From assembly GCF_014280175.1 (NCBI RefSeq), contig NZ_CP047931.1, positions 2,250,001 to 2,282,000 on the forward strand: a stretch of 32,000 bases of DNA. Direction: 5' to 3'. Position 1 is the first letter of the stretch, and every line of letters starts with the position of its first letter. Origin of the DNA: Synechococcus sp. A15-28 (lineage in GTDB: Bacteria; Cyanobacteriota; Cyanobacteriia; PCC-6307; Cyanobiaceae). The notes beneath the pieces were generated by a model. That model saw only the letters and a program-made list of their open reading frames with translations, ran no database searches and was not told where the DNA came from. Position numbers and translations under genes: made by a program. Positions 9,409 to 12,175 of the stretch are shown piece after piece.

Positions 9409-11118
9409 ATGCCCTACCGCATCTCCCGCCAGGCCTACGCCGAGACCTACGGACCCACCACCGGCGACCGGGTTCGCCTGGCCGACACCGAGCTGATCCT
9501 CGAAGTCGAGAAGGATTTCACCGTGTACGGCGACGAGGTGAAGTTCGGCGGCGGCAAGGTGATTCGCGATGGCATGGGCCAGTCCCAGACCCCTCGAGCC
9601 GAGGGCGCCGTCGACACGGTGATCACCAATGCTCTGATCCTGGATTGGTGGGGCATCGTCAAAGCCGATGTCGGACTGAAAGACGGCCGGATCGTGGGCA
9701 TCGGCAAAGCCGGCAACCCCGACACCCAGGAAGGGGTGACCATCGTGGTGGGCCCCGGCACCGAGGCGATCGCTGGGGAAGGTCACATCCTCACGGCCGG
9801 TGGCATCGACACCCACATCCACTTCATCTGCCCCCAGCAGATCGAAACAGCTCTGGCCAGTGGCGTCACCACCCTGATGGGAGGCGGCACTGGACCAGCC
9901 ACCGGCACCAACGCCACCACCTGCACCCCCGGCGCCTTCCACATCGGGCGAATGCTCCAGGCAGCGGAAGGCCTGCCGGTGAATCTGGGCTTCTTCGGCA
10001 AGGGCAACGCCAGCACCCCTGAAGCCCTGGAAGAACAGGTGCGCGCCGGCGCCTGCGGCTTGAAGCTGCATGAAGACTGGGGCACCACACCGGCAACGAT
10101 CGATGCCTGCCTGTCGGTGGCCGACCGGATGGATGTGCAGGTGTGCATCCACACCGACACCTTGAATGAAGCCGGCTTCGTGGAAGACACGATCGCCGCC
10201 ATCAAGGGACGCACCATTCACACCTTCCACACCGAAGGTGCCGGCGGCGGCCATGCACCGGACATCATCAAGATCTGCGGCAAAGCGAATGTGCTGCCAA
10301 GCAGCACCAACCCCACCCGGCCCTACACCCGCAACACGCTTGAGGAGCACCTCGACATGCTGATGGTGTGCCACCACCTCGATCCGAAGATCCCGGAAGA
10401 CGTGGCTTTTGCCGAATCGCGGATTCGCCGCGAAACGATCGCCGCCGAAGACATCCTTCACGACCTGGGCGCCTTCTCGATCATCGCCAGCGACTCCCAG
10501 GCCATGGGGCGCGTGGGCGAAGTGATCACCCGCACCTTCCAGACCGCCCACAAGATGAAGGTGCAGCGCGGTGCACTGCCGGAAGACTCCAACCGCAATG
10601 ACAACTATCGGCTGAAGCGCTACATCGCCAAGGTGACAATCAACCCCGCTCTTGCCCATGGCATCAGCAGCGAGGTGGGCTCGATCGAAACCGGCAAGCT
10701 CGCCGATCTCGTGCTGTGGAAGCCGGGCTTCTTCGGCATTCGCCCGGAACTGGTGGTGAAGGGCGGTTCGATCGTCTGGGCCCAGATGGGCGACGCCAAC
10801 GCCTCGATTCCCACCCCCGGCCCGGTGCACGGCCGGCCGATGTTCGGCGCCTTCGGCAAAGCCCTTGCCCCCAGTTGTCTTACCTTCGTGAGCGCAGCGG
10901 CGATGGATGCCGACATCCAACGTCAGCTGGGACTGGAGCGCACCTGCATGGCGGTGAAGGAGACCCGCAGCGTCGGCAAGAGCGCCCTCAAGCTGAATGC
11001 AGCGCTGCCCAAGGTGAGCGTGGATCCGCAGACCTATGAGGTGTTCGCCGACGGTGAGCTGCTCACCTGTGAGCCCGCCGAGGTGCTGCCCCTCGCCCAG
11101 CGCTACCTGCTGCTTTGA
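9409..11118 (+). CDS. ureC: urease subunit alpha UreC
   Basis: 569 aa with the active-site motifs [17 protein letters not shown] and MVCHHLD. Confidence 0.97.
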
Positions 11119-11223
11119 TCCAAAGCACACCCCAAGGTGTTCTGCATCACCAATTCAGAAGAAAGTTCAAATTGGTATCCGCACGAACGACCGCCAAGAA
11201 TTCAAACCTTGCATAATTCTTTT

Positions 11224-11237
11224 GTAGCAACTGCTAC
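11224..11237 (+). promoter_or_regulatory. consensus NtcA-type box GTA-N8-TAC within a 7+7 inverted repeat
   Basis: TGTAGCA-AC-TGCTACA spans 11223-11238, with perfect 7-bp arms and an exact GTAGCAACTGCTAC core. It lies in the ureC/DUF4278 intergenic region, 85 nt upstream of the DUF4278 ATG. Confidence 0.45.
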
Positions 11238-11240
11238 AGA

Positions 11241-11321
11241 CGTTCACCTTGCTTATTGAAGCAAGGCGCAGTTCGACTCAGGCCATGGAACGGGGACCTG
11301 AGCTTGCTTCGAGGAACCACC
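11241..11321 (+). promoter_or_regulatory. structured 5' leader, candidate glutamine-riboswitch-like (glnA / Downstream-peptide family) element
   Basis: CGTTCACC begins at 11241. Hairpin 1 is CCTTGCTT-ATTG-AAGCAAGG (11247-11266). Hairpin 2 is CTCAGG-(14 nt)-CCTGAG (11277-11302). Its loop contains GAACG (11288-11292), complementary to CGTTC (11241-11245), so a pseudoknot is possible. A second CTTGCTT copy (11303-11309), next to GAGGAA and the ATG, can pair alternatively with AAGCAAG. No covariance model was run. Confidence 0.35.
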
Positions 11322-11489
11322 ATGACGACTCTTCTCTACAGAGGTCAGGCCTACCAGCAGGTCAAGGAGCCTGCACAACAGCAGGGCGTGCAACTCACCT
11401 ACCGCCGCAACGTTTATCAGTCCCGCCAGGCTGATGTGCGTCAGGCCCGTGTTCAACTCACTTACCGCGGCGTCAGCTACCTGCGCTGA
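11322..11489 (+). CDS. DUF4278-family small protein (55 aa)
   Basis: MTTLLYRGQAYQQ...VQLTYRRNVYQ...VQLTYRGVSYLR carries three L-[LT]-Y-R-[GR]-x-x-Y repeats, typical of cyanobacterial DUF4278. The track ORF start at 11256 adds 22 residues with no similarity. Confidence 0.7.
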   Translation: MTTLLYRGQAYQQVKEPAQQQGVQLTYRRNVYQSRQADVRQARVQLTYRGVSYLR

Positions 11490-11500
11490 TACCTGTTGGT

Positions 11501-12175
11501 TCAGGCCACAAGTCGGTTAAGCACGGGCAATTCCAGCAGTTCATCACGCCACTGCTGAGCCCACAGATCCTGACTGCGTTCGTAGAGCTCCATCAGCTCT
11601 TCGACCGCACCTGGGCGGAAATCAACCCGCAGATCCAGCAACGGAAATGCCGCTTCGCCGCTCACCTGCAGAGCGGCGGATGTGCAGCTTGATGCGCGTT
11701 GGTCGCCACCAGCCTGCTCTCCTGCCTGCAGGGCCGTCATCAAACGACGGCCCAGTTTCCAGTTGGGATCACTGGTGAGAAACGTCTGTTCCATCGCCTC
11801 CAGCACCACTTCGCCAGCCAGGCAATTTCCCGCAACCGAAAGGTTGGGATGGTGCCGATGACCCGCCCATCCGCCGCACTCAACTCCAGTCCAGCAAGCA
11901 GTCCGGCCATCAAGATCGATCAGATGGAACTGGCGCCAATCCCGTTGGGGGTCATCCAGCAGAAGGCTGTTCAGCACATCCTGCGCATCCGCATGATGTT
12001 CAAGACGCTCCAGGCCGCAAATTCCCAGATAAGGATTGGTGTGGGCTTGGGTTGCAACGGCACCTACTCCAGATCGGATGTGGGGAACAGTGGAGCCCAC
12101 AGCCAGGTGACAGGTCGCCACGGCAACGCCGAAACGACCGTTGTTGGGATCACGCGCCAGGATTGAGAAGGTCAA
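11501..12175 (-). CDS. DUF1028-family (Ntn-hydrolase-fold) protein
   Basis: It begins (TTG)-TFSILARDPNNGRFGVAVATCHLAVGSTVPHIRSGVGAVATQA, the hallmark DUF1028 N-terminus with Thr2 as the putative N-terminal nucleophile. The TTG start overlaps the upstream stop (TTGA). Confidence 0.8.
   Translation of the reverse strand: MTFSILARDPNNGRFGVAVATCHLAVGSTVPHIRSGVGAVATQAHTNPYLGICGLERLEHHADAQDVLNSLLLDDPQRDWRQFHLIDLDGRTACWTGVECGGWAGHRHHPNLSVAGNCLAGEVVLEAMEQTFLTSDPNWKLGRRLMTALQAGEQAGGDQRASSCTSAALQVSGEAAFPLLDLRVDFRPGAVEELMELYERSQDLWAQQWRDELLELPVLNRLVA

Follow-up and report, generated by a model that had tools for sequence, protein, structure and literature searches.

The locus downstream of ureC

The stretch of DNA that was analysed as a whole (32,000 nucleotides, hereafter the window) belongs to the genome of a marine Synechococcus, which consists of one contig of 2.34 Mb. 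A reading made earlier from the sequence alone had placed a structured leader and a short open reading frame within a nitrogen-related gene neighborhood, and the gene content agreed with this description. The upstream neighbor is ureC (9409-11118), and a DUF1028 gene, an M20 amidohydrolase gene and an AsnB-type amidotransferase gene lie downstream in convergent orientation. The features found between ureC and the end of the short open reading frame are listed below in window coordinates; alignment A1 is described in the next section.

11212..11217, + strand: CATAAT, candidate -10 hexamer (inferred), 6 nt upstream of the NtcA box
11224..11237, + strand: perfect NtcA box GTAgcaactgcTAC (GTA-N8-TAC), read directly, abutting the aptamer
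11238..11302, + strand: Glutamine-II (type 2, Downstream-peptide) riboswitch aptamer (RF01704 match; 19/19 invariant columns)
11241..11245, + strand: 5′ strand of the pseudoknot, CGTTC (complementary to 11288-92; 100% of cells pair)
11247..11266, + strand: hairpin P1, 8 bp, ATTG loop (sequence, fold and covariation)
11267..11276, + strand: conserved linker CGCAGTTCGA (G31, C32 and A33 invariant in alignment A1)
11277..11302, + strand: hairpin P2, 6 + 2 bp, A11296 bulged; its loop holds GAACG, the 3′ strand of the pseudoknot (sequence and Rfam)
11303..11312, + strand: tail CTTGCTTCGA, candidate OFF-state helix with 11256-65, the P1 loop and 3′ arm (fold and duplex z)
11311..11316, + strand: Shine-Dalgarno-like (SD) GAGGAA (sequence)
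11322..11489, + strand: open reading frame of a 55-amino-acid DUF4278 protein (IF17-like "downstream peptide"; Pfam PF14105)

All coordinates given for the leader in the sequence-only reading agreed with the sequence between 11200 and 11330. The 5′ strand CGTTCACC starts at 11241, as read directly from the sequence, and its CGTTC (11241-45) is complementary to the GAACG of the P2 loop (11288-92), as had been pointed out, so that a pseudoknot of 5 bp can form. Hairpin P1 is a perfect 8-bp stem (11247-11254 with 11259-11266) closed by an ATTG loop, and its folding energy when taken alone is -9.7 kcal/mol. The description of the second hairpin held in part. The 6-bp stem at 11277-11302, formed by CTCAGG (11277-82) and CCTGAG (11297-302), is present, but the loop is 9 nt long and not 14 nt, because the Rfam consensus extends P2 by two C-G pairs (11283/11295 and 11284/11294) and leaves A11296 bulged. 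The heptanucleotide CTTGCTT occurs twice in the leader, at 11248-54 and again at 11303-09. The GAGGAA at 11311-16 is followed by the ATG at 11322, and 19 nt separate the end of the aptamer from the AUG. A GAAC at 11314-17 overlaps the SD and could pair with the GUUC of the 5′ strand.

The open reading frame had been assigned to DUF4278, and the Pfam search confirmed the assignment with a PF14105 match of 37.9 bits (cut-off, 25.3 bits) over residues 3-53 of the 55. The peptide contains three x-Y-R-[GR]-x-x-Y repeats. Both the N-terminus, MTTLLYRG, and the threefold repeat are kept in orthologues across genera, while 33-amino-acid paralogs have two repeats. Each of the five DUF4278 matches of the genome directly follows an RF01704 copy. 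The C-terminal IF7-like region through which IF17-type proteins contact glutamine synthetase (GS) was not found in the 55-amino-acid open reading frame; there is no C-terminal extension, because the frame has 55 codons for amino acids and DUF4278 fills residues 3-53. Klahn et al. 2018 described the picocyanobacterial homologues as devoid of the C-terminal part of IF17 that binds glutamine synthetase (PMC6212724). A 2018 review equates DUF4278 with the N-terminal portion of IF17, a portion not needed for GS inactivation, and left GS inhibition by these peptides unclear (PMC6316151). A PDB sequence search with the peptide returned designed repeat proteins only and was uninformative.

The surroundings of the gene deserve some additional comments. 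The riboswitch and the peptide gene directly follow ureC in this genome, at a distance of 120 nt. Elsewhere in the genus, the orthologous pair is in many genomes located about 840 nt past the ureC stop codon with another gene in between (for example, L022:686, L025:663, L026:681, L028:686, L034:655 and L036:667). The ends of the DUF4278 open reading frame and the convergent DUF1028 gene are 11 nt apart (11487-11503). There is no terminator-like hairpin between these ends, and metatranscriptome contigs cross the junction (11384-11663). Inside ureC, on the antisense strand, Rfam family RF02514 (the 5′ ureB sRNA of Helicobacter) matches 9564-9850 (-) with 166 bits. Members of this family are encoded opposite the homologous urease subunit gene. 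The match most likely reflects conserved coding sequence and not an sRNA gene.

Family assignment, conservation and transcription of the leader

The layout of the leader had been likened to the glutamine-binding glnA and Downstream-peptide RNAs, and two tests had been proposed, a scan with the Rfam covariance models and a search for covariation in orthologous leaders. Both were positive, because a covariance-model match and compensatory substitutions were found. In the Rfam scan of the whole window, RF01704 (Glutamine-II, the former Downstream-peptide motif) matched 11238-11302 (+) with 72.9 bits and E = 5.3e-16, well above the gathering cut-off of 33 bits and over the full length of the model (positions 1-60 of 60). 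An E-value of 5e-16 indicates that the match is more than chance. The type 1 glutamine aptamer, the glnA RNA (RF01739), had no match at the gathering threshold in the window and none genome-wide. The proposal of an RNA of the glutamine-binding families ahead of the DUF4278 open reading frame was therefore supported, specifically for type 2 and not for type 1. The genome carries nine RF01704 copies, of which the window copy has the best score, one that is also near the top of those of the family. RF01704 was found in 85 of the 151 genomes searched within the taxonomic family (24 of 36 genera), usually in several copies, and was absent from all 14 control genomes.

Conservation was assessed in alignment A1, which comprises 58 distinct leaders, taken from the paralogs and from genomes of the genus and of the family; each sequence begins 3 nt before CGTT and extends to include the start codon. 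Taking P1, P2 and the pseudoknot together, 97.2% of the cells contain standard pairs, compared with 87.2% in column shuffles, and no more than 50% pair when the 3′ partners are slid. Compensatory double changes were found at 11 of the 19 pairs (116 cells vs 30 expected), and the covariation score of 0.328 (0.151 in shuffles) was reached in none of 500 shuffles. In P1 all six aligned pairs show compensatory changes and 93.6% of cells pair; in P2 four of eight pairs do, and 98.1% of cells pair. The pseudoknot pairs in 100% of the cells of the 58 leaders. Four of its five pairs are invariant, and at the fifth both bases are exchanged (C-G to G-C) in two paralogs, where the 5′ strand is CGUUG and the loop GCAACG. 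Thus, both hairpins and the pseudoknot are supported by the covariation. All 19 invariant columns of A1, which include the GCA of the linker and the loop GGAACGGGG, are kept in the window copy. We conclude that 11238-11302 is very probably a functional-looking type 2 glutamine riboswitch in the 5′ UTR of the 55-amino-acid DUF4278 (IF17-like) gene.

A different reading would be that the transcript functions chiefly as a regulatory sRNA, like Yfr6, or that the aptamer is a decayed relic, and that the open reading frame is not controlled by glutamine. The homologue in Prochlorococcus MED4 was indeed first annotated as the non-coding RNA Yfr6 (PMC6212724), and the function of the peptide is unclear (PMC6316151). 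However, the Pfam match of the open reading frame is above the cut-off and its N-terminus and repeats are conserved across genera, the score of the aptamer is close to the highest in the family and every invariant position is kept, and a reporter placed behind the MED4 leader is translated in a glutamine-dependent manner (PMC6212724). We consider this reading highly improbable.

The perfect GTA-N8-TAC of the NtcA box is shared by 54 of the 58 leaders; in 53 of them it ends 3-8 nt before CGTT, and in the 54th it ends 23 nt before it. Hexamers of the form TAnnn[TA] are found 0-6 nt before the NtcA box in many homologous leaders, and a strict sigma-70 promoter scan found no full promoter at the leader. 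The CATAAT at 11212-17 predicts a start near 11224, while an RNA-derived contig, described below, ends at 11237. For a start near 11224 or at 11237/38 the NtcA box would cover the -10/+1 region, which is the geometry of a repressor site, as in gifB. In Prochlorococcus MED4 a perfect NtcA site overlaps the transcription start (PMC6212724). The box is also a perfect palindrome, GUAGC-AACU-GCUAC; a transcript beginning near 11224 would carry it as a 5-bp hairpin at its 5′ end.

Four metatranscriptome studies yielded contigs over the leader and the open reading frame, at 95% identity or more. In one run (X1) a 106-nt contig with a depth of 1117 spans 11237-11319 with one mismatch, and 23 nt of Illumina adapter are fused to it on the upstream side, at 11237. 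Upstream of this position, run X1 has no cover between about 11096 and 11236, with depth near zero, and the depth in a second run (X2) is low. Since the adapter-fused contig starts at 11237, the whole aptamer is contained in the RNA, and since the adapter is fused there and the cover of X1 stops upstream, many cDNA fragments must have ended at this base. Position 11237, one base ahead of the aptamer, is consistent with an RNA 5′ end, either primary or processed, although contigs give weak support for the ends of RNAs and cannot prove one. Processing at 11237 is possible because the end of the contig falls exactly at the 3′ edge of the NtcA box. A transcription start downstream of 11266 had been named as incompatible with a riboswitch; the RNA-derived contigs reach 11237 and give no indication of such a start. 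The contigs branch at 11264 and 11322 because a conserved core is common to the paralogs.

Some paralogous copies are arranged differently. Three of them (L004, L008 and L009, each at :1440-1500) have in common a ACAGAAATG / ACAGAAGTG motif, which lies roughly 25-35 nt upstream of the aptamer. There is no NtcA box at L004 and L008, and the box of L009 is 23 nt away. L004 and L008 precede small open reading frames of 58 amino acids that are not DUF4278, and L009 precedes one of 81 amino acids with a weak, sub-threshold DUF4278 match. These three copies may constitute a differently regulated subclass.

Proposed translational control and candidate OFF-state structures

The aptamer shows both family hairpins, the conserved linker and the 5-bp CGUUC/GAACG pseudoknot. 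In the crystallised aptamer described by Huang, Wang and Lilley 2019, P1, the pseudoknot and P2 are coaxial and glutamine lies in the groove of the pseudoknot helix; the linker is the third strand of a triplex, and conserved linker and loop nucleotides form the ligand pocket (PMC6698751). A translational mechanism was considered likely by the same authors (PMC6698751). In a reporter assay, translation from the Prochlorococcus MED4 leader went up after the addition of ammonium, which is ON switching (PMC6212724). Judging from the solved structure and the reporter assay with this homologue, L-glutamine would stabilise the pseudoknot by binding in the groove of its helix. The stabilised pseudoknot would lock the coaxial P1-PK-P2 stack, and the stack would in turn displace an alternative pairing that hides the ribosome binding site (RBS) 9-14 nt downstream. 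With the RBS-hiding pairing displaced, translation would therefore be up at high glutamine, and this ON-switch logic is well founded by homology. At the level of the whole module, low 2-oxoglutarate would relieve the repression by NtcA and high glutamine would open the RBS. From the repressor geometry of the NtcA box and the ON switch, we therefore propose that the peptide is made only under nitrogen sufficiency.

Other mechanisms were tried and rejected. Transcription termination was discarded because there is no terminator-like site in 11050-11600, and the linker and the P2 loop were discarded as anti-RBS elements because the duplex z against the tail is about 0 for both. In a partition-function model that mimics the ligand-bound state by blocking the pseudoknot strands, the unpaired probability of the RBS increased by a mean of 0.12 over the 58 leaders. 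The change in the window leader, from 0.57 to 0.62, was small, and an effect of this size is too weak to be decisive. In the MFE of the aptamer fold the SD itself is paired with UCUUC in codons 4-5.

Two structures are candidates for the OFF state. In one of them the tail CUUGCUUCGA (11303-12) would invade P1 by pairing with 11256-65, and in the other the free GUUC (11242-45) would pair with the GAAC (11314-17) inside the RBS. The first derives from the observation, already made in the sequence-only reading, that the second CTTGCTT can compete for AAGCAAG. The competing pairing is real in the window leader, where it extends to 10 bp, but it is not conserved family-wide. Under this model the tail, in the absence of glutamine, would pair with the loop and 3′ arm of P1, open P1 and bury the start of the SD, and the glutamine-stabilised pseudoknot stacking on P1 would expel it. 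It concerns the expression platform alone, is compatible with the main explanation, and we regard it as possible though rather unlikely. The helix between UUGAAGCAAG (11256-65) and the tail reaches the first two bases of the SD. The constrained swap fold has -24.7 kcal/mol compared with -27.3 kcal/mol for the aptamer fold, and this gap of 2.6 kcal/mol is smaller than the mean of 6.7 obtained with shuffled tails (z = -1.9). Taken as an isolated duplex, the tail and the P1 3′ arm pair with -12.8 kcal/mol (z = -3.5 vs dinucleotide-shuffled tails). Among leaders with a CUUGC-type tail, the cognate duplex of P1 3′ arm and tail has a mean of -10.9 kcal/mol vs -7.5 and -6.3 for non-cognate ones. Several P1 variants pair with the tail in other registers that reach the SD, and in the orthologue L012 the tail pairing (-14.4) is stronger than P1 itself (-7.4). 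The overall comparison of cognate with permuted combinations gave p = 0.011 to 0.03 for sequences that are non-independent.

The same helix fails as a family-wide feature and was rejected as such. In fixed alignment columns 64.3% of the cells pair vs 61.0% in shuffles, and the whole-leader ddG test over the 58 leaders gave a mean z of +0.12. The paralogs L002 and L060 combine the same tail with a P1 arm that is not complementary to it, and the swap pairing is absent from Prochlorococcus-type leaders. In addition, in the in-line probing to which Huang 2019 refers, P1 was already present in the absence of ligand; the constructs had no tail (PMC6698751). The helix was thus kept as lineage-specific: in Synechococcus leaders with a CUUGC-type tail the OFF state could, tentatively and somewhat doubtfully, be a P1 strand swap in which the freed 5′ arm could add to the occlusion of the RBS and glutamine would lock P1 by stacking it coaxially on the pseudoknot. 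The CTTGCTT pairing is a reasonable candidate for the OFF state and not a demonstrated feature.

The composition of P1 shows a regularity of its own. Columns 11-13 and 26-28 of A1, which correspond to window positions 11248-50 and 11263-65, make three P1 pairs that have a 5′ pyrimidine and a 3′ purine in nearly all 58 leaders (C-G, U-A or U-G; a single G-C pair is the exception). The 5′ sequence usually seen in P1, UCACCUC, presumably resembles the 3′ end of 16S rRNA (the anti-SD), and the 3′ arm of P1 is similar to an SD. The pyrimidine-rich 5′ arm and the SD-like 3′ arm may matter for occlusion of the RBS.

The second candidate uses the 5′ strand itself as the anti-RBS. Without glutamine GUUC (11242-45) would pair with GAAC (11314-17), a copy of the GGAAC of the loop that overlaps the SD, and close a fold resembling a three-way junction; glutamine would then shift the strand to the loop. 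When the leader is truncated at 11321, this closing helix is part of its MFE (-26.7 kcal/mol), and it is likewise part of the MFEs of many homologues, but it has just 4 bp here and the MFE loses it when the coding region is included. GAAC or GGAC is found in 71% of the leaders and in 56% of the unique tails vs about 39-40% in shuffles (p = 0.014), and leaders that have no SD (the L013 group) retain UGAAC; high-light Prochlorococcus-type tails (CGGAG), however, are devoid of the motif. The 5′ strand is among the segments that change state upon ligand binding (PMC6698751). On its own the 5′ strand has a duplex z of about -0.3 to -0.4, and the comparison of cognate with permuted combinations was not significant (p = 0.27). 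Fixed columns for the 5′ strand/GAAC and linker/tail helices gave 72.6% of cells paired vs 71.2% in shuffles, a test without information value, since the positions of the tails are not homologous between leaders. On balance, we consider this pairing unlikely to be the OFF state. As for the type 2 riboswitch with ON-switch logic, the window copy is a convenient construct for the question of which structure hides the RBS without glutamine, because its 10-bp competitor is unusually clear.

Relation to known glutamine riboswitches

By homology, the urease and nitrogen-metabolism neighborhood would hold a small peptide gene controlled by glutamine and NtcA. The assignment is useful for annotation because such 55-amino-acid open reading frames and their leaders are often left unannotated, and it bears on the role of DUF4278 peptides in marine picocyanobacteria, which have no full-length GS inactivating factors.

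The module of NtcA box, type 2 glutamine riboswitch and IF17-like DUF4278 peptide is already known (Klahn et al. 2018, PMC6212724). The name type 2 glutamine riboswitch is theirs, and they found the element confined to marine Synechococcus and Prochlorococcus, often in multiple copies (nine in WH8102) and nearly always before DUF4278 genes (PMC6212724). The leader studied here has P1, P2, the linker and the pseudoknot in common with the MED4 yfr6/PMM1846 leader and the crystallised Glutamine-II aptamer, as is also evident from the full-length match to the model. Like other Glutamine-II systems, it lies in a 5′ UTR about 20 nt before a short DUF4278 open reading frame, has an NtcA box directly upstream and belongs to a set of multiple copies in a marine picocyanobacterium; no structural difference was found. 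The window copy is one simple aptamer, and nothing is nested in it. Compared with the Glutamine-II consensus, P1 of the window copy is longer (8 bp vs about 5), and its tail duplicates the P1 5′ arm, whereas most members of the family have no such duplicate.

With the Glutamine-I riboswitch (RF01739) of the Synechocystis gifB leader, the window leader would share the ligand, the ON-switch logic and the repression by NtcA, and the class of downstream gene (DUF4278/IF17) is the same. In contrast, the architecture of the Glutamine-I riboswitch is a three-way junction, and RF01739 is unmatched in the window or the genome. The products differ as well: that of gifB is a full-length IF17 with the GS-binding C-terminus, which the 55-amino-acid peptide of the window does not have. 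The window module is a plain, high-scoring instance of the published type 2 system, in its canonical form and context.
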